Counted from the first letter of the stretch, positions 8,783 to 31,842 are shown. The stretch is DNA of 64,000 nucleotides from Phycisphaerae bacterium (GCA_963675745.2 CAXXWX010000019.1:224001-288000), one strand, 5' to 3'. Notes: generated by a model not told the origin, from the letters alone. Made by a program: numbers and translations.

Positions 8783-11517
8783 GCCTTCCTCCCCTTGGCC
8801 GATTCGTAATAGACCCACATCGGCGACGACTTCATGATCAACGCGGTGAAGGCCAGGATGATGACGAACAGAATCCACGCCAACGCCGAGGCATAGCCCA
8901 GGCGGTATTTGAAAAACGCCTCGCGGAACAGGTGCAAACCATAAAACAGCGCCGAGTCGCTGGGGCCGGTCCCGCCGTCGAAGAGCACAAACGCCACGTT
9001 GAACACCTGAAACGAGCCGATGACACCCATGATCAGGTTGAAGAAGATCACCGGCGAGAGCATGGGGATCGTCACGTTTCGCAGACGCTGCCAGCGACTC
9101 GCTCCGTCGATCTCGGCGGCCTCGTAGAGCTGTGTCGGGATGCTCTGCAAGCCGGCCAGGTAGATGATCATGCCACCCCCGACAGCCCACAGCGCCATTA
9201 CCACGAATATGTAGGGCGTCACGTGCTCGTCATCCAGCCAGGCAATCGGATAGCGCGCGCCGATCATGTCCGCCAGCGTCTGAATCCACCCGGGGCGCAA
9301 CCACCACGTCGGATGCAGGTACGTCAACTGCGACCCGTTACTAAGCGCTGCCTGAGCCTGATACACTGCGGACAGCACCCATCCACGATCCGGCGCCACC
9401 ATCCACCACCATACGGCCGCCGCGCCCAGCGACAGTCCAATAGCTGGGAAGACACGCCCGACCGCGCGGCCGCTCCGGTCGGCAGGCCCGCGCTTGAGCA
9501 ATCGAATGGCCAGCACGAGCGTCACGGCACCGACGACGATCGCGAAGAGCTGCGCCGGATTGGCCGGATTCGCCCAGGCGAGCATGCGGTTTACCCAGCC
9601 GTGGTTCTTGTCAAACAGGTGCCACCACAAGACCGCCGCCGCCACCGACGGCAGCACCGCCGGGATGTAGTACAGCGTGCGAAAAACCGCGATCCCCTTG
9701 ACGGCCTGGTTCATCAGGATCGCGACCGCCAGCCCGGCGACCAGCCCGGCCGGCACCGCCAGCAGCGCATAGCGGAGGGTCACCCACAGCGAGGTCCAGA
9801 ATTTCGGGTCGGTTCCGCTCAGCGCGACCTGGTAGTTCTCCACACCGATAAACTCCGCCTGTGTGAAATCCGACAAGGACTGCCACTGGGCGAACGACAG
9901 CGTGATCGACACCAGGATCGGAAACGCCGCGAAGATCAGGAATCCAAGCACCCACGGTGCGATCAACGCATAACCCCAACGCTCCTCGGCGAGCTGTAAT
10001 TTCGAGCGCCCTTTCCGTGGCCGTGAGATCAGGCGGTAGATCAGCACTACGATCGGCACCAAGGCCAGCAGCAGGGCCGCGATACCAAAGGTGTGGGCGC
10101 CGCGCACCGCGCGATCGCGGTGCAGGACGATATTGCCACGCTTGGTGATCCGGGCGGCGGCATCGGCCGGCGTCAGCTCCGTGCGCGGACGCAGCAGCAG
10201 ATCGTGAAATGTGTCGTTGATCACCTCGTAGATGTCGCCGTAATACGCCGTCGTGCTGTAGGGCGCCAGCGCATAGCCGTTGTCGATGTCATGCGTCAAA
10301 ACCCAGCGACTGGCCGGCTTCTGCGTCGGGTCCACCACCCCGCGCTCCCGCAGGATCGACCGGCGGGTGGGCAGAAATACCTGGTGATTGCGCATGATGC
10401 GCATGCCTTCATCGCTGACGAGGAACTTCAGGTATGCCAGCGCCGCCTCCGGAGCCGCCGACCCCGATGTGACGCCCATGCCGTTCGGGAAATTGACCGA
10501 CGCGCGCGTGCCGTCCGGGCCGCGCGGCAAGACGGCGACGTCCCAATCCAGTTCACGGGCCTGATCGTTGAGCGTCGCGGCGTAGAACACACCCCACAAC
10601 ATCATGCCCAGCGTGCCCTTGCTGAAACTGATATTGCGCGCGTTTTCGCCCTCACCGGTCGGCACGACGCCGTCCGTGTACTTGAGGTCATAAAGGAACT
10701 GGAGCGCCTCGATGGTGCGCGGGTCGTCGGCCACGACCCTGTCTCCGGCCTCATTGACCAGGCGCCCGCCATTCTGCCGGATGAAGCACTCCACCCCGTG
10801 CTGCCACCAGGCGAACTGAAATCCGTAGCTGCTGACGCGTGTTTCGTCGAAACCCGCCTGATCGGGGCGCCGGCCCTGCACATCGCGCGTCAGCGCCAGG
10901 GCTTTTTCGCGCAAATCGTCCCAATCCCAGTTCTCCGTCGGGTACGGGACGTTGTAACGATCAAACAGGTCCTTGGAATAATAAATAATGAACGGCGTGT
11001 AGCTTACGGGAATCGCATACAGCTTCTTCTGACCGTCAACCGTCCGCAGAAACGGCTTCGCCATCGCTTCGATGTAGTCAGGCGGCGGCTGGCCGGGCTC
11101 ATCAAACAGAATCGACCCGAACGCTCGGCGCAACACAGGGTCGTCGGCGATAAACGGCACCAGGTCGCGCAAAACGCCGGACTGGATGTAGTAGTCCGCC
11201 GTGTCACAGGGCACTTGCAGCAGATCAGGGGCGCAACCGGCGGCGATCATCGTGTCCGCTTTGCGCGTCACGTTGCTGCGGATTACGTTCAGGTGAATAT
11301 CGGGATGCAGCCGCTCAAACGCCGCCCGCAGTTCCTTCATCTCGGCCCGGTCGCGCTTGTACCCGCCCTTGCAGAAGGTGATGACGGTCTTGTCGGGTGG
11401 AATCTCGGTCGTCCCGCGTGAGAACAGGCCGCAGGCGACGGCGATGACCAGGCACCCGCCGACGAGGGCGGTAATCCATGGATCGCTGTTCGAGATGGTC
11501 TGCCAGATCATCCGCAT
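8779..11517 (-). CDS. Fused extracellular solute-binding protein + carbohydrate ABC permease (MalF-like)
   Basis: N-terminal SBP motifs (FERLHPDI, IYYSKDLFD, WDWDDL, WDVAVLP); C-terminal permease with GLQSIPTQLYEAAEIDGASRWQR and LGYASALAW. Confidence 0.88.
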   Translation of the reverse strand: MRMIWQTISNSDPWITALVGGCLVIAVACGLFSRGTTEIPPDKTVITFCKGGYKRDRAEMKELRAAFERLHPDIHLNVIRSNVTRKADTMIAAGCAPDLLQVPCDTADYYIQSGVLRDLVPFIADDPVLRRAFGSILFDEPGQPPPDYIEAMAKPFLRTVDGQKKLYAIPVSYTPFIIYYSKDLFDRYNVPYPTENWDWDDLREKALALTRDVQGRRPDQAGFDETRVSSYGFQFAWWQHGVECFIRQNGGRLVNEAGDRVVADDPRTIEALQFLYDLKYTDGVVPTGEGENARNISFSKGTLGMMLWGVFYAATLNDQARELDWDVAVLPRGPDGTRASVNFPNGMGVTSGSAAPEAALAYLKFLVSDEGMRIMRNHQVFLPTRRSILRERGVVDPTQKPASRWVLTHDIDNGYALAPYSTTAYYGDIYEVINDTFHDLLLRPRTELTPADAAARITKRGNIVLHRDRAVRGAHTFGIAALLLALVPIVVLIYRLISRPRKGRSKLQLAEERWGYALIAPWVLGFLIFAAFPILVSITLSFAQWQSLSDFTQAEFIGVENYQVALSGTDPKFWTSLWVTLRYALLAVPAGLVAGLAVAILMNQAVKGIAVFRTLYYIPAVLPSVAAAVLWWHLFDKNHGWVNRMLAWANPANPAQLFAIVVGAVTLVLAIRLLKRGPADRSGRAVGRVFPAIGLSLGAAAVWWWMVAPDRGWVLSAVYQAQAALSNGSQLTYLHPTWWLRPGWIQTLADMIGARYPIAWLDDEHVTPYIFVVMALWAVGGGMIIYLAGLQSIPTQLYEAAEIDGASRWQRLRNVTIPMLSPVIFFNLIMGVIGSFQVFNVAFVLFDGGTGPSDSALFYGLHLFREAFFKYRLGYASALAWILFVIILAFTALIMKSSPMWVYYESAKGRKA

Positions 11518-18504: not shown

Positions 18505-18720
18505 TCACTCGGCCGGAGTGCTACGCTGGCCGGCGTCCTCGTGTGCGATCCCCAGAATCAGCGCCACACCCACGCCCAACACCGCCACCACCGTCTCTTC
18601 AGACAGAATCCAGCCGGCTTGCGCCGCGTACGCCACCAGAACCGTTGCCAGTGCTACCTGCACTTTCCGGCTGACGAGCGGCCATAGCCAGCGCCGCCAT
18701 GTCCCTTCGTTATTGCTCAT
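18505..18720 (-). CDS. Small 2-TM holin-like membrane protein (71 aa)
   Basis: MSNNEGTWRRWLWPLVSRKVQVALATVLVAYAAQAGWILSEETVVAVLGVGVALILGIAHEDAG...; the SRK...GxxxED pattern resembles small phage holin-like proteins; GAGGA RBS. Confidence 0.55.
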   Translation of the reverse strand: MSNNEGTWRRWLWPLVSRKVQVALATVLVAYAAQAGWILSEETVVAVLGVGVALILGIAHEDAGQRSTPAE

Positions 18721-18724
18721 GCCG

Positions 18725-19312
18725 TCATTCCTCACCGTCACTGTTTGCGTCGGAAGTCGCGTTGTCAGCCGAGGCGCCCACCTGCTCTCCCAGCGCGGTC
18801 GCCCAGCCATCCTTGATCCGCTCAAAACGTCGATCGAGCGATTTGATGATTAGATCCACCGGCGATTGGTCGGCGTACAATTTCGCATCCACTCCCGCCA
18901 GGCGCAGCGCCTTGGCACGCTCAAACTGCAACGCCCAGAATTCCAACAAGTCACGTTCGTTCCACGCCTCGTTCAGTGCCTCTCGTTGGGCGGCGTTCAG
19001 CGTCGCATCATCCTGCTCGAGGCGGTGCAACAGATCGCGGTGCAACATGATCCGCAACCCCTCGTGCTGACGCTGGAAGACGAACTGCTGTACCTCGTCG
19101 GCGCGCTGCTGGGCGTTGAGCGCCAGACGCAGCGACGGTGCCGTGCAACCTCCCACCAGCAGCACCATAAGAACCAGCACCAGCGCTCGGCGGCAGAACC
19201 GGTGCAACGTGACGCCGTGACTCTCTTGTGCATTCACTGCCAGATCCTCACAAACCCGCGCGGCTGCGCGCCGCGGTCCCCGTTCACGATTCTCGCTTCG
19301 CGCGATGACCAT
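18725..19312 (-). CDS. Alpha-helical lipoprotein of unknown function
   Basis: RRALVLVLMVLLVGGC lipobox-like signal followed by a helical/coiled-coil mature part. Start ATG 19312 or GTG 19237. Confidence 0.65.
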   Translation of the reverse strand: MVIARSENRERGPRRAAARVCEDLAVNAQESHGVTLHRFCRRALVLVLMVLLVGGCTAPSLRLALNAQQRADEVQQFVFQRQHEGLRIMLHRDLLHRLEQDDATLNAAQREALNEAWNERDLLEFWALQFERAKALRLAGVDAKLYADQSPVDLIIKSLDRRFERIKDGWATALGEQVGASADNATSDANSDGEE

Positions 19313-19316
19313 GCCC

Positions 19317-19616
19317 TCAACCTCCCAGTTCGCCGAGCAACCGCACGGCACACACAAAACCGTCCGTCCATTTCTCAGCACTGATCGCCTCGGCGAGCTG
19401 CTGAACGGTGTCGCGCAGGGCGCTGTCGGACAGCCAGCCACCCGCCGGCGCTTCGCGCGAGAGCGTGGCGTCGTTGTAGTCGCGCGCCGCTGGTGTCTGT
19501 GTCTGCTGTACGTGCTGGGCTTCGATAAGCAGTGCGTCGATCACCTGCCGCGCCGCGCGGACAAAGGTGCGCGCCGTGTTCTGATCCAACTGTTCCGCGA
19601 ATGTCACGAGGTCCAT
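19317..19616 (-). CDS. Hypothetical helical protein (99 aa)
   Basis: GGAGG RBS; in operon; MDLVTFAEQLDQNTARTFVRAARQVIDALL... Confidence 0.7.
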   Translation of the reverse strand: MDLVTFAEQLDQNTARTFVRAARQVIDALLIEAQHVQQTQTPAARDYNDATLSREAPAGGWLSDSALRDTVQQLAEAISAEKWTDGFVCAVRLLGELGG

Positions 19617-19679
19617 CGTATGCCTCCGTTGTACAAGGCCGCGCTACCCGCGGCCGGGGTCCGATGTGCCGGCCGATTG

Positions 19680-19967
19680 CTACGCCTGGTCCAGCACCTC
19701 GAGTTGGTGCGAAAGACGGGCAAACCACTCGGCCTCTGTTTCCCGCTGCGAACGCAGTTCCTCACGCAGCGCGGTCAGCGCCGCCGTGTTTGTTCCGATC
19801 ACGTCAAGCAGGCGGTCATTAATGTCGATGAGCTGGGCTGCATGCGATTGCGACGCCTCGACGGCACGCGATGTTCGTACGCGCTCCTGACGCTCATACC
19901 ACCACATCACGAATAGCAGCCCCGCGATCCCCAGCGATGGAATCTGCTCCACGACCGCGTCGAGCAT
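19680..19967 (-). CDS. TM + coiled-coil protein, BhlA/UviB holin-like architecture
   Basis: MLDAVVEQIPSLGIAGLLFVMWWYERQER... followed by a coiled coil (LLDVIGTNTAALTALREEL); start overlaps the upstream stop. Confidence 0.6.
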   Translation of the reverse strand: MLDAVVEQIPSLGIAGLLFVMWWYERQERVRTSRAVEASQSHAAQLIDINDRLLDVIGTNTAALTALREELRSQRETEAEWFARLSHQLEVLDQA

Positions 19968-20293
19968 CACGGCACCAACTCGTACCACACGGTCAACTGG
20001 AAGTCCTTGTCGAGTCCGTCCATGCTGTTCGTGAACACCAGCGCTTCGCCGATTTTGGTTGTCACCCCATACTCGCGCCCGAAGAACAGGTCATGCGGGG
20101 CATAGCTGTCGATTCGCAGCCAGCCAAGAATGGTCGTCGGCGTCTCCTCCCCCAGACGCGACTTCAATGTCAGCCTGCCGGTGTCCGTGCCGCTGTACAG
20201 CACGCGCGTGATCAGCACGCGCTTGCCGGCAACAGCCGCCACAAGTTCGGCGTTAATCTGAGACCCCGAGTGTTGCGCCGTGGCAATCGCCAT
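19967..20293 (-). CDS. Hypothetical beta-rich protein (108 aa), possibly structural
   Basis: AGGAG RBS; MAIATAQHSGSQINAELVAAVAGKRVLITRVLYS...FQLTVWYELVP. The ORF-track N-terminal extension overlaps gp36 and was discarded. Confidence 0.7.
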   Translation of the reverse strand: MAIATAQHSGSQINAELVAAVAGKRVLITRVLYSGTDTGRLTLKSRLGEETPTTILGWLRIDSYAPHDLFFGREYGVTTKIGEALVFTNSMDGLDKDFQLTVWYELVP

Positions 20294-20348
20294 CTTCTGT
20301 ATCTCCTGTGTCTCAACAATGGTCGCGCAGGTACGCCGGATGCCGCGC

Positions 20349-20801
20349 TCAAAGTCCGTCGAGTTCGTCTCCGGTGAACTTGCGCGCACTCCCCGAATAC
20401 CGCGGCGAATCGTCCACCGCCGTCGGGCCGGCAATCGGGCGCGCCGCCGGTAGGTTGATCGCGCCGCGCGCCACTCCCTTGAACCACTCAGTGGTGGCCA
20501 GGTACACATCACGGACGCGACCCGGAATGTCACCCACGAACGGCGAGCTCTTCCACGCACCGTACTCAGCAAAATCCAACACTCGCGCCTGTAAGGTCGC
20601 TTCAAGGTCCGCGTTGGCGCTGATGTTGATCGGTGTCGCGTAACGCACTGACAAATAGCTGTCGGCTTCCGACTGGGCTTCGTCAATGATCTGTTGCGCG
20701 ACGCTCGCTGATGCCGTCTTGCCATCAACCCTGTCTGTGAGCCGCGCGTAGAGCAAACTGCCCAGCCGGGCAGTGAGATCCGCGGTCGTGATGTATGCCA
20801 C
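20349..20801 (-). CDS. Mu gp36-like head-tail connector (DUF1320)
   Basis: MAYITTADL, IIDEAQSEADSYLSVRYATP, VRDVYLATTEWFKGVARGAINL; GAGGAG RBS before GTG. Confidence 0.85.
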   Translation of the reverse strand: MAYITTADLTARLGSLLYARLTDRVDGKTASASVAQQIIDEAQSEADSYLSVRYATPINISANADLEATLQARVLDFAEYGAWKSSPFVGDIPGRVRDVYLATTEWFKGVARGAINLPAARPIAGPTAVDDSPRYSGSARKFTGDELDGL

Positions 20802-20824
20802 TGTCGCTCTCCTCGGCGGCGCGC

Positions 20825-20845
20825 CCGGGGTCACGTGGACCCCGG
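20825..20845. terminator. Hairpin between the capsid and connector genes (attenuator or mRNA stabiliser)
   Basis: CCGGGGTC-ACGTG-GACCCCGG; no U-tract. Confidence 0.4.
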
Positions 20846-20888
20846 TGCGACACCGCTGTGGGAAAAGGCTCCCCCGCTCGCGTTTCTG

Positions 20889-21818
20889 TTATGTCAGCGT
20901 CACCAGGCAGGCGTTTTGCCAGAAGCCATACCCCGCCTCGTGAATCGCCTTCACGCCGTACTGGTGCTGGTTCTCATTGATCTCGAGCTCACTGCCCTCG
21001 GCCAGGGCCTGCACCTGGACGGGAAGCTCTTCCTGGAATATGAACGGGCGCGTCTCGCCATCACCACGAAAGATGGCGAACTTGGTCGTCCAGCTCAGTC
21101 GCGGATTGGCGACCCACTCGACACGAAACGGCTCCGGCCCGGCCAGTGGATTAACCGTGCCATCACCGGGCTTGCCGGTCAGGGCGGCCAACGTCGCCGG
21201 CAGGAAGGGCATCGGTACCATCACCATGAAATCACGCGACGACTCGTTCAGCGGCTCACCCGCGTCATCCTTGAGCCCCATCAGTTGCGTGATGCCGTGG
21301 ACGATCCCCTCGTACATCTCGATTTCGGTTGGCGCGGTTGGTGTCGCGACGTCATGCGTGATGCTGTTGCTCTGCGCGCCCGAATCACCCTCATTGTGGT
21401 CCGTGGCAAAAAAATTGCTGCCGTCGTACGCCGCTGAGCTCTCGCCGGCTTGCAGCAGCGTCGTCAACAGCTTGTTGGGATGGGTGGCCACGCGCCGCGC
21501 CATCTCGTTGACGCGCACCATGATCTGCCCGGTCTTGTCACGCCGCTGTTCATCGGCATCGACACGTATCGTCGACTCCCACACCTTGTTGACGATCGTC
21601 ACGCCCTGCGCGCTCAGCGGCTTGACGCGGCGACCACCAACCCACTCGCGCACCTGGGGGACCATCCCCAGCCAGCGATACGTCTCACTTTCCTGCGCGC
21701 TGGAGAAATGCAGCGCCAGTTTGGTCCACCACGCGGCTTGCGCGTACTCCTCGAGTCGGCGGTAAAACCGCCCGATGATCGCGCGCGACGTTAATCCTGT
21801 CTCAGTCACAACTGCCAT
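20889..21818 (-). CDS. Mu-like major head subunit gpT
   Basis: ETYRWLGMVPQVREWVGGR, TIVNKVWESTIRV, DKTGQI, YDGSNFFATDH, RPFIFQ, AGYGFWQ. Confidence 0.9.
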   Translation of the reverse strand: MAVVTETGLTSRAIIGRFYRRLEEYAQAAWWTKLALHFSSAQESETYRWLGMVPQVREWVGGRRVKPLSAQGVTIVNKVWESTIRVDADEQRRDKTGQIMVRVNEMARRVATHPNKLLTTLLQAGESSAAYDGSNFFATDHNEGDSGAQSNSITHDVATPTAPTEIEMYEGIVHGITQLMGLKDDAGEPLNESSRDFMVMVPMPFLPATLAALTGKPGDGTVNPLAGPEPFRVEWVANPRLSWTTKFAIFRGDGETRPFIFQEELPVQVQALAEGSELEINENQHQYGVKAIHEAGYGFWQNACLVTLT

Positions 21819-21880
21819 GTTCTTGTCTCCCAATCGGTCTCTGCTTGTCTCTTTTGATTCGTCAGCCAGGTCGTTCAGTC

Positions 21881-22016
21881 AGTTCTCAGTGTTCAGTTGT
21901 CAGTTTCAGCAGCGACAACACCCGCCGAGATCAGCGAACCTGTAACGCGAATCAGCGCCACGGCCGCAGCATCTGTGTTCGCTGTTTCTGTTCCTGAAGA
22001 CTGAACACTGAAAACT
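21881..22016. repeat. Heptamer-based (TCAGTNN) imperfect inverted repeat inside the capsid operon
   Basis: AGTTCTCAGTGTTCAGTTGTCAG (21881-21903) versus CTGAAGACTGAACACTGAAAACT (21994-22016): 20 of 23 positions complementary. Confidence 0.8.
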
Positions 22017-22022
22017 CCTCCG

Positions 22023-22433
22023 TTACTGCCATGGCTGACAGCGCACGCGCGCGAGGTTGGTTCCTTCGAGCCCGATCAGCACACCGATCGCGCTGTTCCC
22101 GCTCGACGTAAGCGTCAACGTGCCGTCGTCGCTGGCGTACACAACGCTGCCCACGTCGCTCTGCGTAACCCCGCTCAGCGTGTGGACAATGTCCACGACC
22201 TGGTGCAGGCGCGCCGCAATACCGCCGGCCGCGTGTCCCGCAATCGTGTTGTCCGCCTGACGGTAGGCCACGCCCACGAACGTGTCTGCGGCGACAAGCG
22301 GTCGCGCGTATCCCGTGCTGGCGTTCAATCCGACCAAGGCCCCCTTGAAGATCACAACGTCATCATCGACCGGCACGTCGATCAGTTCCTGTGTGGCAAA
22401 AAACTCCACTTCGCGATCCGCAGTCAACGCCAT
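22023..22433 (-). CDS. Capsid cement/decoration-like protein
   Basis: MALTADR...PV...IFKGALV...GYARP...FVGVA...DN...DVGSVVYASDDGTLT, typical of the small gene between protease and gpT in Mu-like phages; AAGGAG RBS. Confidence 0.75.
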   Translation of the reverse strand: MALTADREVEFFATQELIDVPVDDDVVIFKGALVGLNASTGYARPLVAADTFVGVAYRQADNTIAGHAAGGIAARLHQVVDIVHTLSGVTQSDVGSVVYASDDGTLTLTSSGNSAIGVLIGLEGTNLARVRCQPWQ

Positions 22434-22480
22434 TGGTGATATCTCCTTCATGTTGGGTGACAGCTTCCGCCGCCAAATGA

Positions 22481-23473
22481 TCAAATGCTCGTGGACACCG
22501 AGCCACGCCGTACGCGGCCCGCAAGCACCGCGCGCTCATACGCCGTCAGATCCTCAACTTCGATCCCCGCGCGCCGAAAGGCATCGGCGTTGCGCGCGTA
22601 GGTCAGCTCGACATCCGATCGTGCCAGCACGTCGCCGCGCGCATCGAGTTCCACGACGCGCCCCGGCGGCAGCAAGACAGGCGCGCGCGCCAACCGGGCC
22701 GCCGTCGCTTGCGGATCGCGCAGGTAGTCCTCGCGCCAATCCATGCTGTTGGCGTCGAGGATCTTCCCCACGCGCATGCCACGCTCGACAAACGTGTCGG
22801 CCTCTTGTCCAGCGAGTTGCCGCCGCAGCCGCGCCACTTCTTCCTGTGCAGCATCCAATTCGCGTTCGGCCAGCAGCGCCGCTTCGAGCGTGATCTGGTC
22901 TTCGGAGTCGCCGTTGATAGCTGCGGGCTGAACGCCGCGTGAGGCGGCGAGCGGCGTAACATCGTGCATCGCAGGGTCATTGGTAAGTGCCACCGGCCCC
23001 AACGCCGCCACATCACCATGATCCTCGTCGGCCCAGTAGATCACGGGCGAGAAGTAGCGGTACTCCCCGGCCGCCAGCAGTGTCTTGGCTCGATCCGTCC
23101 ACGTGACGTCCACGGCCCACAGACCGTCATCGCGCACCTCGAGCCTGCCGATCCAACCCGCCGCCGGTCGCAAACCGTCCGCGCGTGTGTTGAGATGCTC
23201 AAAGCTCTGGTGCTCATAGTCGATCGCCAGCTTGCGCCCCAGGCCGTCGAACCACCGCTTGGCCGAGTCCGCGTGCCGGCGCGTGAATTCAAAGCTGCCG
23301 CCCGACACCGGGTGTTCAACCTCTATCGCCCCAAACGGAATGAGCAGCCATTCACTCACCGGCTCGGCTCGGCGTGTCGCCAGGACACTGTACGTGTTGG
23401 CATCGCAGTCAACGCACATGTCGGCGGCTTGCACGAGTTCATGGGCACGCAGGCGGTCAAGCGCATCGGTCAT
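22481..23473 (-). CDS. Mu-like prohead protease I with C-terminal scaffold region
   Basis: LAIDYEHQS, PAAGWI, GLWAVDVTWT, GEYRYFSPV, ALTNDPA; scaffold-like VERGMRVGKI...W...DP...LARAP. Start uncertain (frame open to 23665). Confidence 0.88.
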   Translation of the reverse strand: MTDALDRLRAHELVQAADMCVDCDANTYSVLATRRAEPVSEWLLIPFGAIEVEHPVSGGSFEFTRRHADSAKRWFDGLGRKLAIDYEHQSFEHLNTRADGLRPAAGWIGRLEVRDDGLWAVDVTWTDRAKTLLAAGEYRYFSPVIYWADEDHGDVAALGPVALTNDPAMHDVTPLAASRGVQPAAINGDSEDQITLEAALLAERELDAAQEEVARLRRQLAGQEADTFVERGMRVGKILDANSMDWREDYLRDPQATAARLARAPVLLPPGRVVELDARGDVLARSDVELTYARNADAFRRAGIEVEDLTAYERAVLAGRVRRGSVSTSI

Positions 23474-23675
23474 GATCTCGCTGACACGCCCGAAATCAGC
23501 CTCAACCCCGCTGCTTAGCAGCGCCAACGCCTCTCTGAGCCCATCACCGATGATCGGCGGTGGTGGGAATGCTGCCCGCGGAGGCTCGCAGGTGTTTCTG
23601 GTTGTATCTGTGCGTTCCAAGCTGATCACCTCGCTTTCTGCGTTTCGTTGTCCATCCCGCCGCACGACGCGCGGC

Positions 23676-24164
23676 TCAACTCGCCTTGACCCGGCGCCGC
23701 TTACTCTCGGCGGGCGCTTGAACCATGAGCTCGACGTTCCCCTTGCTGCTGCACCGACCGGTCGAACGAAACCCCAGCGCCTCGTAAAAGCGGCGCGGAT
23801 TGCCCGAGCTCATGTCGAGCTTGCAGCGCACCTCGGTCGATCCTGTCTGACGAATCAGCGCACGCCCCACTCCCAGCCCCCGATACGCCGGATGCACCAG
23901 CACGTTGATCAGCCGCTTGCCGGCGGTCTGTATCGCGATGCCGACCAAAATCGCGTCGACTTCCGCAATGAAAACGCGGTGGTGCTTGCCGGACAGGATG
24001 TCCGCGAGTTGGCCGCGCCGCATGAAGTAGTCCTTGCGCAAAACCGTGTCGAAGAAGAACAGCAACGGCTCGACGTCCGTCGGCCCCACCCGCCGCACAC
24101 TGAGGTTCGCCACACGCCTTGGTTCCGCCGTGGCGCTATCGTTTTTCCGCGTGCGTTTGTTCAC
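23676..24164 (-). CDS. GNAT family N-acetyltransferase
   Basis: VLVHPAYRGLGVGRALI (acetyl-CoA motif A) and NPRRFYEALGF; GTG start overlaps the portal stop (GTGA); GGAGG RBS. Confidence 0.85.
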   Translation of the reverse strand: MNKRTRKNDSATAEPRRVANLSVRRVGPTDVEPLLFFFDTVLRKDYFMRRGQLADILSGKHHRVFIAEVDAILVGIAIQTAGKRLINVLVHPAYRGLGVGRALIRQTGSTEVRCKLDMSSGNPRRFYEALGFRSTGRCSSKGNVELMVQAPAESKRRRVKAS

Positions 24165-25480
24165 GATTGGCCCTCCCGCGAGACGGTGGTTTCGCCACTC
24201 TGAGCCTGCGGGATGCCCAACGCCTGGTGCAACCATGGCAGCGGTATGGACAGTCCCAGGTCGTTGACCGCAACGGCCAACGTCTCGGCCAGGACTTTCG
24301 TATCCACCGATTGCACCAACGACCGCCGAAAGTGCGGCACGGGAACATCATCGCCAAAGCGCGCCTGCACGATCGGCTTGAGCACATCGCGGCGCAGCGT
24401 GTCTGCCTCGTCGTTTATGTCGTCGACAAGCAGGTCTTCGCGGACGCGGTCGTGGACCTCCGCCGCCGCACGCGAGCCCGTGTTTCCCATGTCGGTCGTC
24501 AGGTGTTGCCCCAGCCAGAGAATGGTTATCTCGGTATTGCAGTAGTCCTGGAGTGGCAGGTAAGGCTTGTCACCGCCCTTGGATTCGAGAAAGTCCATCT
24601 CGACGTTCTTGCTGAACGCCGCCACCGCGTCGGTGCCCAAACGCGTGAGCATCTTCAGCAGCTCACTCTTGTCGGGCTCCGGCGTGCCGGGTTCATAACG
24701 CGCGACCCGCACGGGCATGCCGGCGATCTGCGAGTAGATAAGCCAATCTTTGAAGCTCAGGTTCTGGGCCACATAGAGCAGCACGGAGGCACGCAGCAAC
24801 CCATCCTCAAAGTGTCGTCCCGGACGCGGGCGCGGCTTGTGAACGATCCATTTGGTCGGGTGTTCGTCGAGCGCAATCCCGAATGAGGCGCTGTCCGCCG
24901 TGCGCACGCACAGCCGCCACGGCTGCTGCGGGTCGGCGACCAGGCGCGAGTACGGCACGGGCACAACATCCACCAGCCGACCACGCTCCCACACCAGTTC
25001 GGCAACGGATATGCCATAGCCGATTGCGTTGGCCAGGTGGTCGAGCGCTTCACGGAATCGGTCAAGCCCCGCAAGCGTTGCTCGGCAATGTTCAACCGCG
25101 GCAGCCGCATCCCCCGCGATACTCCGGTGATCGGCGCTCTTGCAGTCTGGCGGCGACTGCAACTGCCCGGGTGAGAGCTCCCACTCCAGTCCGGTCAGCG
25201 CCAGGCGGCGCGTCGCCTCGACGGCGGCCAGCCGCGGCCATTTTTGCAGCATCTCGGAGAACAGTTCGAATTGCAGTTGCGGCGCGCCGGAGTCGGCGCT
25301 TTGCAGGAAGCTCAGCAGGCGGGCGGGCGTGATGCCCACGCTGGGGTACATGCGCAAGCTGTCCTCGCGCCAGGGCCGGATCACACGGCCATCGCACGCC
25401 GGCGCGGTTTTCTCTCCCGGCAGCAGCGATCCCAGGGTCTTTAGCAGGCTGAGGGCATGACGGCGGGTCTTCTTGAGCAC
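24161..25480 (-). CDS. Mu gp29-like portal protein (DUF935)
   Basis: GITPARLLSFLQSADSG, RRLALTGLEW, NAIGYGISVAELVW, KWIVH, GLLR, GMPVRVARY, LGQHLTT, GSRAAAEVHDRVR; AAGGAGG RBS before GTG 25480. Confidence 0.9.
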   Translation of the reverse strand: MLKKTRRHALSLLKTLGSLLPGEKTAPACDGRVIRPWREDSLRMYPSVGITPARLLSFLQSADSGAPQLQFELFSEMLQKWPRLAAVEATRRLALTGLEWELSPGQLQSPPDCKSADHRSIAGDAAAAVEHCRATLAGLDRFREALDHLANAIGYGISVAELVWERGRLVDVVPVPYSRLVADPQQPWRLCVRTADSASFGIALDEHPTKWIVHKPRPRPGRHFEDGLLRASVLLYVAQNLSFKDWLIYSQIAGMPVRVARYEPGTPEPDKSELLKMLTRLGTDAVAAFSKNVEMDFLESKGGDKPYLPLQDYCNTEITILWLGQHLTTDMGNTGSRAAAEVHDRVREDLLVDDINDEADTLRRDVLKPIVQARFGDDVPVPHFRRSLVQSVDTKVLAETLAVAVNDLGLSIPLPWLHQALGIPQAQSGETTVSREGQS

Positions 25481-25534
25481 GGCGGCAGCCTCCTTCACGC
25501 GGGGGGGCTGACCGCGCCCACGCCGCATGCATCA

Positions 25535-25569
25535 AGAATAGCACAGAAGTCTAGCTATTCTAGGACTAG
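25535..25569 (-). promoter_or_regulatory. Putative promoter/operator of the capsid operon
   Basis: AT-rich patch with inverted repeat AGAATAGC-N11-GCTATTCT (25535-25561); on the minus strand an extended -10 TGcTATTCT overlaps one arm. Confidence 0.5.
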
Positions 25570-29916: not shown

Positions 29917-30690
29917 ATGGAGCGAGGCAGTCGGAAGCGGGAAGCGATAACGGCGGTCTGGGATACTTACACACGCACTCGCTCTGATGAGGCCCGCAAC
30001 AAGCTCGTCGAGCACTACATGCCGATCGTCACTAAGCTGGCGGAAATCATGTCACGCCGACTTTGGCCCCGGGTATCAGCCGATGAGCTGGCCAGCGCCG
30101 GCTTCGACGGGCTGATAGCGGCTGTCGCGGCGTTCGATCGAGATCGGGGGGTCAAGTTCGAGACTTATTGCCGACAGCGCATTGTCGGTGCCATCCGCGA
30201 CTGGCAGCGTGAAATCGACCCGCTGGGACGCTCCGGGCGGAGCTTCGAGCGGACACTGCTGGCAACGGAAAGCCGCTTTCAGGCCGAACAGGGGCGTTTG
30301 CCGACCGTGTCCGAGCTTGCCGGCGCCATGGACATGCCTCTGGGCAAGTTCACCAAGATGAAACGAACCGTACTTGCATCGCACTGCGTGCCGTTGGAGA
30401 CGACGATGGACCGCCGCGAAGAGCACAGGGTGGGGTCATTAGTGCCGGCCGACCCTCGACCGGGACCTGCCCAACACACTGAGCGCGAGTTGATTCGGGA
30501 GCATCTGACCAGGGGGCTGAAAGAACAGGATCGGCTAGTCATCGTCTTGTATTACTACGAGCGCCTGACCATGGCGGAGATCGGCGCGGTGCTCGGCGTG
30601 AGCGAGTCGCGCGTCTGTCAACGTCACGCGGAGATCATCGAACAGTTGCGGGCGCGCTTCGGCAAGCAACCCTGCGACCTGGTGGCCTGA
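29917..30690 (+). CDS. FliA/WhiG family RNA polymerase sigma factor
   Basis: RNKLVEHY, DELASAGFDGL, FDRDRGVKFETY, RIVGAIRD, LYYYERLTMAEIGAVLGVSESRVCQ; AGGAG RBS. Confidence 0.92.
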   Translation: MERGSRKREAITAVWDTYTRTRSDEARNKLVEHYMPIVTKLAEIMSRRLWPRVSADELASAGFDGLIAAVAAFDRDRGVKFETYCRQRIVGAIRDWQREIDPLGRSGRSFERTLLATESRFQAEQGRLPTVSELAGAMDMPLGKFTKMKRTVLASHCVPLETTMDRREEHRVGSLVPADPRPGPAQHTERELIREHLTRGLKEQDRLVIVLYYYERLTMAEIGAVLGVSESRVCQRHAEIIEQLRARFGKQPCDLVA

Positions 30691-30733
30691 GCAGCTCGCC
30701 TGAGAACAGACTGCCTCCCTTCCCCCTCGAGTC

Positions 30734-30766
30734 CGGGAGCCTCGCTGCAATGCATCGAGGCTCCCG
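30734..30766 (+). terminator. Hairpin downstream of the sigma gene, between convergent genes
   Basis: CGGGAGCCTCG-N11-CGAGGCTCCCG; weak U-tract. Confidence 0.5.
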
Positions 30767-30840
30767 CGATGTTTCGCCCCCATCCATTCCGACGAGCCGG
30801 CGCAGCACAAGTGTCTTCGCTGACGCGTCTGCGCAAGTTC

Positions 30841-31842
30841 TTAGTATTGAACGAGTTCGGCGCCGTCGATGACTCGGTCCCAGTCAAAGGCCGGGCCGGG
30901 ATCCACCTTGCCGCGCGTGATGTGCCAGTGACCCAAAAGCCCACTATACGCGGCCATCTCATCATCGCTCAGTACCGTCGTGCGCAGATTCCCATCCGCA
31001 TCACGCGGATAGTCCATCTCGATTCTGGGCAACACCGCGCACAGCGTGGCGGTCAGCTTGACGAGTGAATCGTACTGCGCGTCCGTCAGGTCGTATTGGC
31101 TCAGCTCACGTCCGTTGATCGTGCCCTGGACGATGTCGTTGCGGGCTGGGTACGCGACAAAACCGGGAGTGCGCACCCCGGGATCACCAATCCAAGCAGG
31201 ATAATTGACGTATGCGCGTCCTTCGTCGTCACGGGCATACCACTCATCCAGCGTCTTGGTGTCGCCATACGCCCCGATATTCGCGATCTCGACCCCGATA
31301 CTGCGATCGTTGGCACTGCCGGCGTGCCACGCGCGCTCCTTGAGATCGAGGGTTTGATAGATCGTGCCGTCCACGTCGAGCATGAAATGGACGCTCAGGC
31401 CGCGCATGTCCTGCAATACGCGAAAGCACCGCCGCGACGAGCCGCAGGCATCGTAGTGGATCACAAACAGGTCGACCCATTCCTGCAATCGCTCCAGGCT
31501 CCAGCCCGATTCCCGCACCTCCGCCAGCACCTCATCGGGCAAATGTCGCCGATACGTGCTGTAGCGAATTGGCTGCTTGCTGACCGGCTTGGTTGGGCTC
31601 TGCTGATCGCTGAAACGGCACTCGGCCCGGTAGGCGTCATAGCCTCCGGGGTCCATCCACAGCACGACAGGTGCCCCGGTGTGAAAAAGCTGCCCGCAGA
31701 CCACTATTTCATCGCCGAGACGCGTCACGGGGGCGCCTGGGTGGCCGTAGGGCCCCGGGGCAACGCAACCCGCGGTTGCGAGAAACAGAGCCAGCGCGCC
31801 AACTAATTGCCAGATCAACGCTCGATTGCCAGTCGTTTTCAT
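30841..31842 (-). CDS. N-acetylmuramoyl-L-alanine amidase (Amidase_2, AmpD/AmiD-like) lipoprotein
   Basis: LATAGC lipobox; VIHYD, LSVHF, RAWHAG, NDRSIGVEI, GHWHI, KVDPG; AGGAG RBS. Confidence 0.88.
   Translation of the reverse strand: MKTTGNRALIWQLVGALALFLATAGCVAPGPYGHPGAPVTRLGDEIVVCGQLFHTGAPVVLWMDPGGYDAYRAECRFSDQQSPTKPVSKQPIRYSTYRRHLPDEVLAEVRESGWSLERLQEWVDLFVIHYDACGSSRRCFRVLQDMRGLSVHFMLDVDGTIYQTLDLKERAWHAGSANDRSIGVEIANIGAYGDTKTLDEWYARDDEGRAYVNYPAWIGDPGVRTPGFVAYPARNDIVQGTINGRELSQYDLTDAQYDSLVKLTATLCAVLPRIEMDYPRDADGNLRTTVLSDDEMAAYSGLLGHWHITRGKVDPGPAFDWDRVIDGAELVQY

Follow-up and report, generated by a model that had tools for sequence, protein, structure and literature searches.

The stretch of DNA analysed here, referred to below as the window, comprises 64,000 nucleotides from a Phycisphaerae bacterium (GCA_963675745.2 CAXXWX010000019.1:224001-288000) and carries on its minus strand, at 18505-25563 with the promoter included, a head operon of eleven co-directional genes related to the head genes of phage Mu. 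Read from the promoter, the order is a Mu-type portal, a GNAT acetyltransferase, a gpI protease/scaffold protein, a decoration protein, the gpT capsid protein, gp36 and five small genes, s7 to s11 (Table 1). This gene set was agreed by a six-frame listing of open reading frames (ORFs), Pfam and PHROG scans and a codon-usage caller trained on the organism's own genome, a model in which all five small ORFs score positive. Comparison of the gene sequences across genomes indicates that the cluster descends from a phage-derived element present across the order, of which it has kept only the head part, and that it has been inherited vertically and maintained by selection.

Table 1. Features of the head operon, listed in the direction of transcription (positions are those of the window; pLDDT, predicted local distance difference test; AF2, AlphaFold2).
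Feature	Position	Strand	Basis and remarks
Conserved promoter/operator, with CTAG(A) boxes in tandem at a spacing of about 9 nt and a -10-like box, GCTATNCT, after them	25535..25563	(-)	lies about 55 nt 5' of the portal GTG
Portal, Mu type, 439 residues from GTG 25480	24161..25480	(-)	PF06074, E 5e-73; phrog_113
GNAT acetyltransferase	23676..24164	(-)	PF13508, E 8e-12; PF13673; 4-nt overlap with the portal stop
Head protease, Mu gpI type, with C-terminal coiled-coil scaffold part	22481..23665	(-)	PF10123, E 7e-37; phrog_328
Head decoration ("cement") protein, short 136-residue form	22023..22433	(-)	phrog_1731, E 8e-21; phrog_122 (head decoration), 5e-4
Major capsid protein, Mu gpT family, 309 residues	20889..21818	(-)	PF10124, E 4e-43; phrog_371, E 3e-52
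gp36 (DUF1320), head-tail adaptor/head completion protein	20349..20801	(-)	PF07030, E 1e-15; phrog_195
s7, small eight-stranded jelly roll of phage type	19967..20293	(-)	AF2 model, pLDDT 96
s8, predicted single-pass membrane protein with coiled-coil tail	19680..19967	(-)	invariant hydrophobic segment, then conserved heptad-like region
s9, soluble helical protein	19317..19616	(-)	AF2 model, pLDDT 72, helical bundle
s10, predicted lipoprotein with conserved helical domain	18725..19237	(-)	start 19237 or 19207; signal peptide ends in an invariant Cys after GG
s11, 71-residue protein with two membrane helices	18505..18720	(-)	18 invariant columns in 30 sequences; most conserved small gene

Shine-Dalgarno-like sequences are found at most of the refined starts, including GAAGGAGG 5' of the portal GTG and GAAGGAG 5' of the decoration gene, and the stop of one gene overlaps the start of the next both between portal and GNAT and between s7 and s8 (TGATG). 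Frameshifts and internal stops were looked for in the operon genes and none was seen, and the guanine-plus-cytosine content of the cluster (0.61-0.645) does not differ from that elsewhere in the window (0.60-0.675). The cluster lies between host genes recognised by Pfam, with AMMECR1 on one side and a zinc-ribbon protein and ispF on the other. An earlier, first-pass annotation of this DNA had claimed ribosome-binding sites, coupled starts and stops, intact genes, host-like composition and host genes on both sides; all of these are borne out, and the end coordinate that it gave for the operon, 25480, is the exact start of the portal gene.

The same annotation had proposed that the operon has a promoter/operator of its own, and this proposal is upheld by comparing, over 47 loci of the host family, the 450 nt that precede the portal. 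In 45 of them this stretch contains a putative promoter, an element rich in AT in which the GCTATNCT box comes after one, two or three CTAG(A) boxes. CTAG is eight times denser upstream of the portal than in the whole window (2.96 versus 0.375 per kb), and the composite motif occurs only once in the 5.2-Mb genome, at the position given in Table 1. Since the gene upstream of the promoter varies from locus to locus, the conservation of this element belongs to the operon. A wider regulon governed by the CTAG/GCTATNCT motif was considered and rejected because of that single occurrence. Separately, arrays of decamers ending in CCGCCA (GAATCCGCCA-like) lie upstream of the CTAG element in 16 of the 47 loci, about 100-180 nt upstream of the portal (among them L122, L076, L092 and L121).

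The genomes of the host family are all uncultured metagenome-assembled genomes (MAGs), and the one that contains the window is 91% complete. The gene for the major capsid protein (MCP) is present in 52 of 61 family genomes sampled, in 39 of the 42 of high quality and in 36 of 40 genera, nearly always as a single copy. When five MCP-negative genomes were searched with a portal profile, the portal was found in three, on fragmented contigs, while G042 (99% complete) and G074 (92%) lack the head genes. Among the 57 MCP-bearing loci of the family, for which genes were taken from a simple codon-usage caller so that some starts are approximate, 36 have enough sequence on either side to count as complete, and portal, GNAT, protease, decoration protein, capsid protein and gp36 are present in every one of these, whereas s7 is found in 19, s8 in 29 and s9, s10 and s11 in 34 each. 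The constant gene content that had been anticipated therefore holds for the six head genes and not for the small genes, which had been regarded as an equally constant part.

These genes have evolved under constraint and, it appears, by vertical descent. Ratios of nonsynonymous to synonymous substitution (dN/dS; Nei-Gojobori, six close pairs) range from 0.00 to 0.50 across all 11 genes, from 0.00 to 0.24 for the capsid protein and from 0.00 to 0.50 for s7-s11, compared with 0.19 for the neighbouring host gene AMMECR1. Across the family the capsid protein is 63-80% identical and the portal 57-69%, while SecDF is mostly 49-60% identical (68% in one genome of the same genus). In 23 genomes, the tree of concatenated portal, protease, capsid and gp36 sequences shares 4 of 20 splits with the SecDF tree (label permutation: mean 0.22, maximum 3 in 2000), and the patristic distances of the two within the family are correlated (Spearman 0.72, 210 pairs; Mantel 0/2000), with head proteins evolving slightly more slowly (mean distance 1.04 versus 1.22). 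A flank composed of AMMECR1, an undecaprenyl-phosphate-translocase-like gene and a sodium-solute symporter recurs beside the cluster in several genera, indicating one chromosomal site. The arrangement also recurs in over 50 assemblies that are independent of one another, among them three contigs of megabase scale, one of which is titled a complete chromosome, and it is therefore no assembly chimera. Hence the first-pass view of a selected, domesticated head-only module is supported: the cluster is not strain-specific, its dN/dS is not near 1, its inheritance looks vertical and a chimera at its boundaries is ruled out.

What has been retained is a head-assembly pathway. All 85 protease sequences compared, three from real phages included, share the motifs DYEHQ, YFSPV and LTNxPA without variation, and the C-terminal coiled-coil (scaffold) region is kept, so that the assembly and maturation machinery looks intact. 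The shell protein matches only Mu-like_gpT and Phage_capsid_4 in Pfam. The decoration protein occurs in the short form (about 136 residues) in the window and about a quarter of the genera, and in a long form of 245 residues in most genera, with an additional conserved C-terminal domain of about 100 residues that has no Pfam match (L032:10471-11208). The adaptor gp36 has a dN/dS of 0.09-0.21.

What is missing is the packaging motor and the tail. At E<=0.1, the organism's own genome yielded no Terminase_6N, TerL_ATPase, Terminase_3, Terminase_6C or GpA_ATPase, no Phage_Mu_F (MuF) and no Phage_sheath_1, in searches whose controls were positive in three to six reference genomes (four for the sheath). 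Mu gp37 and the DDE domain of MuA (DDE_2) also gave no match in this genome, but their controls matched in no genome. Nothing tail-like was recognised by Pfam or PHROG after gp36, and tblastn with terminase, gp37-like and tail-like proteins of sister families retrieved only weak, beta-helix-type matches from the own genome. Pfam identified no integrase or transposase in the 64-kb window, where the other 38 proteins scanned have host functions or no family match. The first-pass list of absent Mu-like genes thus stands for the terminase, MuF and sheath, none of which turned up as an orphan locus in this genome, and is left without informative controls for gp37 and MuA. With no terminase or tail found in the genome, the cluster cannot package or deliver DNA alone. 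In Mu-like phages the terminase precedes the portal, gpF and gpG follow the portal, and gp37 and the tail genes follow gp36. The window departs from this prophage layout, as the upstream neighbour is the zinc-ribbon host gene and the GNAT gene lies in the MuF slot.

Terminases in the rest of the host family are sporadic. Among five nearly closed family genomes that bear the cluster, Terminase_6N is absent from four and lies on another contig in the fifth. Large terminase subunits (TerL) of the sister-family type occur in 6 of 61 family genomes, and in 3 of 25 in another sample, at 31-38% identity; given this low identity and the several matching places in one genome, we regard them as belonging to ordinary phages. 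That genome, the four-contig assembly G053, has several places on contig C2 that match Mu-like terminases (10 matches, three of them full-length at about 37% identity to the sister-type TerL; e.g., L156 and L159), a pattern suggesting that this host, which carries the head-only operon as well, harbours an active transposable phage.

The origin of the cluster is revealed by the other families of the order. Their version, located between host genes and about 12-14 kb long, encodes a large terminase (Terminase_6N/6C), portal, protease, decoration protein, capsid protein, gp36, a gp37/tail-terminator-like protein, a protein of about 700 residues and beta-helix/lectin-like proteins, and exists in two or three subtypes (loci L052-L062 and L139-L153, e.g., L056:5023-17121 and L058:1620-9970). 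The GNAT gene was not found in these terminase-bearing clusters. Sister TerL is present in 85 of 95 genomes of the order outside the host family, at about 50-70% identity, usually in single copy and adjoining the portal. At E<=1e-60 four of the order's families are positive for the portal profile, in 17 of 18, 12 of 12, 11 of 12 and 1 of 1 genomes; a fifth gave 0 of 1, and the 19 other families of the class gave 0 of 256. The sister-family cluster looks like an undescribed, order-wide element of Phycisphaerae resembling a gene transfer agent (GTA), and in those parts of the literature that our search reached we found no description of a GTA in Planctomycetes. To that extent, an order-wide GTA-like element in Planctomycetota (Phycisphaerae) is previously unreported.

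A tree of 69 portals supports this relationship. The 19 portals of the host family form one clade (SH-aLRT, the Shimodaira-Hasegawa-like approximate likelihood ratio test, 100; stem 0.73), which joins 16 sister-family portals and one viral contig in a larger clade (100) apart from 33 other Mu-like portals from IMG/VR. In IMG/VR the most similar portal shows 43% identity and comes from a real phage that encodes both a small and a large terminase and has MuF fused to its portal; no other exceeds 37%. The two IMG/VR portals examined in detail are MuF-fused and about 800 residues long. The closest relatives are not in complete prophages (IMG/VR portals at most 43% versus 57-69% within the family). 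The simplest history, as read from these comparisons, is that an order-wide GTA-like element lost its motor and tail once, at the base of the family, and gained the GNAT gene.

The capsid and decoration genes have had, in addition, a history among phages. As a pair they are 44-53% identical to proteobacterial and other non-planctomycete loci (L128, L130-L133 and L135), compared with about 38% for sister Phycisphaerae. The two of these loci that were annotated, L128 and L131, are lambda-like prophages with a GpA-type terminase, a lambda-type portal and an S49-like protease. Their portals and proteases are unrelated to those of the operon, and the pair has therefore moved between phage types. 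The long form of the decoration protein is likewise found in lambda-like prophages of Proteobacteria (L128:9124-9888).

The GNAT gene occupies what we take, from the gene order of Mu-like phages, to be the MuF slot, an assignment supported by the portal-MuF fusions of real phages. The portal is present in one copy only in the own genome. In one genus it is fused to the GNAT in an ORF of 750 residues, with a GRGSD-type low-complexity linker between the two parts (L042:5125-7377, equivalent to L095:5686-7938). The best matches of the GNAT profile are the small protein acetyltransferases 3f8k (4.6e-6) and YjaB (2kcw). The profile has no relatives in IMG/VR, no targeting peptide was identified on the protein, and scans with PADLOC and NCBIfam returned only weak GNAT matches.

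Of the small genes, s7 encodes a protein of phage type. Its model has 100 BFVD matches at E<=1e-3, to uncharacterised caudoviral proteins of about 105-120 residues (TM-score 0.6-0.74), whereas Foldseek against the PDB retrieves only generic jelly rolls (nucleoplasmin-like and TNF-like, and one phage cement protein at TMq 0.59) and no PDB sequence match was found. The gene is tandemly duplicated in two genera (L109:11509-12203; L113:5757-6425) and absent from about half of the loci. The s9 profile is detected in 16 of 18 host-family genomes and in none of the 282 genomes that represent 23 further families of the class; the protein has no PDB sequence match and nothing in BFVD at E<=0.001, and structural comparison retrieved only generic helical bundles (VIA-align, Z<=8.2) and unnamed clusters (ESM Atlas, 0.81). 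For s10, the motif at the end of the signal peptide is presumably a lipobox. No relatives of s8, s9 or s10 were found in IMG/VR with their profiles. Similarly, hidden Markov models of s7-s10 and GNAT found no match in 46 other loci, sister-family clusters and proteobacterial prophages included, or in six loci around the sporadic family terminases; s11 alone matched.

Homologues of s11 are encoded by real phages, namely at L154 and at seven IMG/VR loci. At L154, a prophage in a host-family genome, the homologue (9490-9777) sits in a group of small unknown genes that precede the terminase. In the IMG/VR contigs (L190-L196), s11 directly precedes a gene for a protein of 150-166 residues in at least four of seven, and three of these contigs then have a tape-measure-like gene of about 785 residues (two PHROG-confirmed). 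We considered whether the small genes form a lysis cassette, with s11 as holin, s8 as i-spanin and s10 as o-spanin. The topologies are compatible with this assignment, but no endolysin is present, s11 in viral contigs adjoins a tape-measure-like gene and not a lysis gene, and s11 is far more conserved than is expected of a holin.

Natural gene losses separate the small genes from the head. G042 retains s9, s10 and s11 between host genes (an APH-type kinase and a ferredoxin; L277:9166-10227) with neither a portal nor a capsid gene, whereas G050 and G018 keep the six head genes without s8-s11, s9 being absent genome-wide in both. The envelope module is therefore usually linked and not obligatory, and, judged by these gene combinations, s9-s11 are a separable envelope module and no obligate part of the putative particle.

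Around the operon the neighbourhood is that of the host. A sigma-70-family factor (257 residues) and an N-acetylmuramoyl-L-alanine amidase (333 residues) are encoded at 29917-31842 in the window, which places them about 4-6 kb away from the operon. The cluster is followed in several genera by two genes in the same orientation, one of about 500 codons that is porin-like, with a weak match to Porin_O_P, and one of about 95 codons (e.g., L074:14415-16293 and L120:13822-15680). A conserved ATPase downstream of s11 was entertained as a candidate and rejected, as the recurrent neighbour of about 500 residues is this porin-like host gene and the other neighbours vary.

Based on these results, we propose as the best explanation, and one that we hold to be about as probable as all others taken together, that the operon would produce a DNA-free, tailless, portal-bearing shell with a portal-linked acetyltransferase, accompanied by separable envelope genes. 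The six head genes would be read from the one promoter/operator conserved across the family. With the portal as nucleus, the gpT shell would assemble around the scaffold part of gpI. This scaffold would then be cleared by the gpI protease, in which the conserved His and Ser motifs are intact, and the shell would be stabilised by the decoration protein. The portal vertex would be capped by gp36, together with s7 where it is present, and the acetyltransferase may ride at or inside this vertex as the enzyme or cargo of the shell. Since the operon encodes no packaging motor, the resulting capsid would have a portal but neither DNA nor a tail. We speculate, more tentatively and with the balance tilted somewhat against it, that such a capsid serves the cell as an enzyme-bearing protein organelle, exapted from a GTA-like element in one family and maintained there over evolutionary time at the scale of the family. 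In that case the shell may possibly work together with the envelope module, which consists of a lipoprotein and membrane proteins.

A number of points weigh against a DNA-free shell. All hosts are uncultured MAGs, and the particle is predicted from the genes. The placement of the acetyltransferase on or inside it is suggested by gene position and one fusion. The head module is dispensable, since at least two good family genomes (99% and 92% complete) do not have the head genes. The absence of a terminase was judged by homology searches in a genome of 91% completeness, and these would overlook a packaging ATPase of non-canonical type; the absences of gp37 and MuA are weak, as their controls matched nowhere. 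A phage adaptor such as gp36 normally binds the portal only after DNA has been packaged. Consequently, the strict retention of gp36 (36/36, dN/dS 0.09-0.21) is more readily reconciled with DNA-filled than with empty heads, and thereby keeps alive a role that depends on a helper phage.

Such helper dependence is the main rival explanation, which we judge unlikely although it deserves serious attention. According to it, the terminase of an infecting Mu-like phage fills procapsids made by the host, and the phage perhaps also provides them with tails. The heads could then be decoys that divert packaging into dead-end, tailless particles capped by gp36 and s7, a capsid-based form of phage interference, possibly with early lysis by s8-s11, or they could be transducing particles that depend on the helper. 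The portal, which is the docking site of the terminase, and gp36 are both kept in all 36 complete loci, real Mu-like phages with related terminases circulate in 6 of 61 genomes of this family, homologues of s11 exist in real phages, and a dedicated, tightly conserved promoter/operator suggests inducible expression. However, a PADLOC scan of 12 proteins against the 2023 library (E<=0.01) gave 0 families, no model matching any of the 11 operon proteins. A stable match between portal and terminase is also not evident, as the portal evolves slowly and vertically while the phage terminases are only 31-38% identical to the sister type. Moreover, interference with phages leaves the invariant GNAT unexplained, and two genomes have kept the head genes but not s8-s11.

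It is improbable, in our view, that the cluster is one part of a split GTA whose terminase, tail and lysis genes lie elsewhere, too diverged or unusual to be recognised, and whose particles deliver DNA. The ancestral element of the sister families does have a terminase and tail-like genes, the own genome is only 91% complete, and RcGTA, the GTA of Rhodobacter capsulatus, is described as multi-locus (PMC5026251). Nonetheless, five terminase Pfam families, MuF and the sheath gave 0 matches at E<=0.1 in the own genome, the terminase and tail-like proteins of the sister families found only the weak, beta-helix-type tblastn matches, and the sister-type terminase is absent from 55 of 61 family genomes, as is Terminase_6N from four of the five nearly closed ones. 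The composite promoter motif, furthermore, occurs nowhere else in the genome. Of the three functions offered by the first-pass annotation, the split GTA is thus disfavoured by the terminase, MuF and sheath searches, whereas a nanocompartment and phage interference are still standing.

We find it still harder to believe that no particle is made and that one or a few of the proteins, such as the protease, GNAT or capsid protein, were co-opted singly with the rest carried along. No particle has been seen, and two lineages have lost the head genes. Yet the six head genes stay together in the same order in 36 of 36 loci with similarly low dN/dS, parts that are specific to assembly (scaffold domain, decoration protein and adaptor) are conserved, and loss, where seen, takes the whole head block. 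Finally, although the phage origin is certain, an inert prophage remnant that is intact by chance is effectively refuted, because the selection data exclude it: the cluster is retained family-wide in single copy (36 of 40 genera), its dN/dS is far below 1, it evolves more slowly than SecDF and its promoter is conserved.

The cluster can be set against several known systems. With the head module of phage Mu it shares both its Pfam families and their order (Portal_Mu, Mu-like_Pro, Mu-like_gpT and Phage_Mu_Gp36), the corresponding Mu genes being the portal gene gp29, F, I/Z, T and gp36. The cluster differs from that module in being flanked by host genes and in having no terminase, MuF (GNAT instead) or tail. 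GTAs of the RcGTA type are, like the cluster, sets of phage-derived structural genes without replication or integration functions that are fixed, vertically inherited and under purifying selection, and the sister-family version (terminase, portal, protease, capsid, adaptors and tail-like genes) has the same layout logic as RcGTA. The head-only cluster, in contrast, lacks a terminase and a tail, is of Mu-type ancestry and carries a GNAT gene. Encapsulins share with the cluster an HK97-fold shell and an enzyme gene beside the shell gene; the shell of the cluster, however, is of the gpT family and comes with a portal, a protease/scaffold, a decoration protein and an adaptor, and we know of no encapsulin with a portal, maturation protease or adaptor. 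Capsid-forming phage-inducible chromosomal islands (cf-PICIs) similarly have their own capsid module and no tail. Such capsid-forming satellites are mobile and strain-variable and possess integrase, replication and packaging-specificity genes, whereas the cluster has no integrase or transposase within 64 kb, is inherited vertically across 36 of 40 genera and sits in a neighbourhood that is fixed in part of the family. Tailocins and contractile injection systems are likewise domesticated halves of a virion, but those keep the tail and the cluster keeps the head.

Within the reach of our literature search, no head-only domesticated counterpart and no terminase-less, portal-bearing domesticated capsid has been described. 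If the organelle reading is true, the cluster would represent a route to bacterial nanocompartments that is independent of encapsulins, the first GTA-like particle with a changed function and a "head-only" mirror image of the tailocins. Two questions can now be put to the test, namely how a cell uses an empty or enzyme-loaded portal-bearing capsid and how a GTA-like element changes function; for the second, the sister families with terminase and tail provide a natural before-and-after comparison within one order. The six-gene core, at about 5 kb, is small enough for direct heterologous expression and cryo-electron microscopy. Overall, the known cases of phage domestication concern tails (tailocins and injection systems), whole particles (GTAs) and the bare HK97 fold (encapsulins); a full head-assembly pathway kept without motor or tail across dozens of genera, and under strong purifying selection, would, if true, be the missing fourth case.

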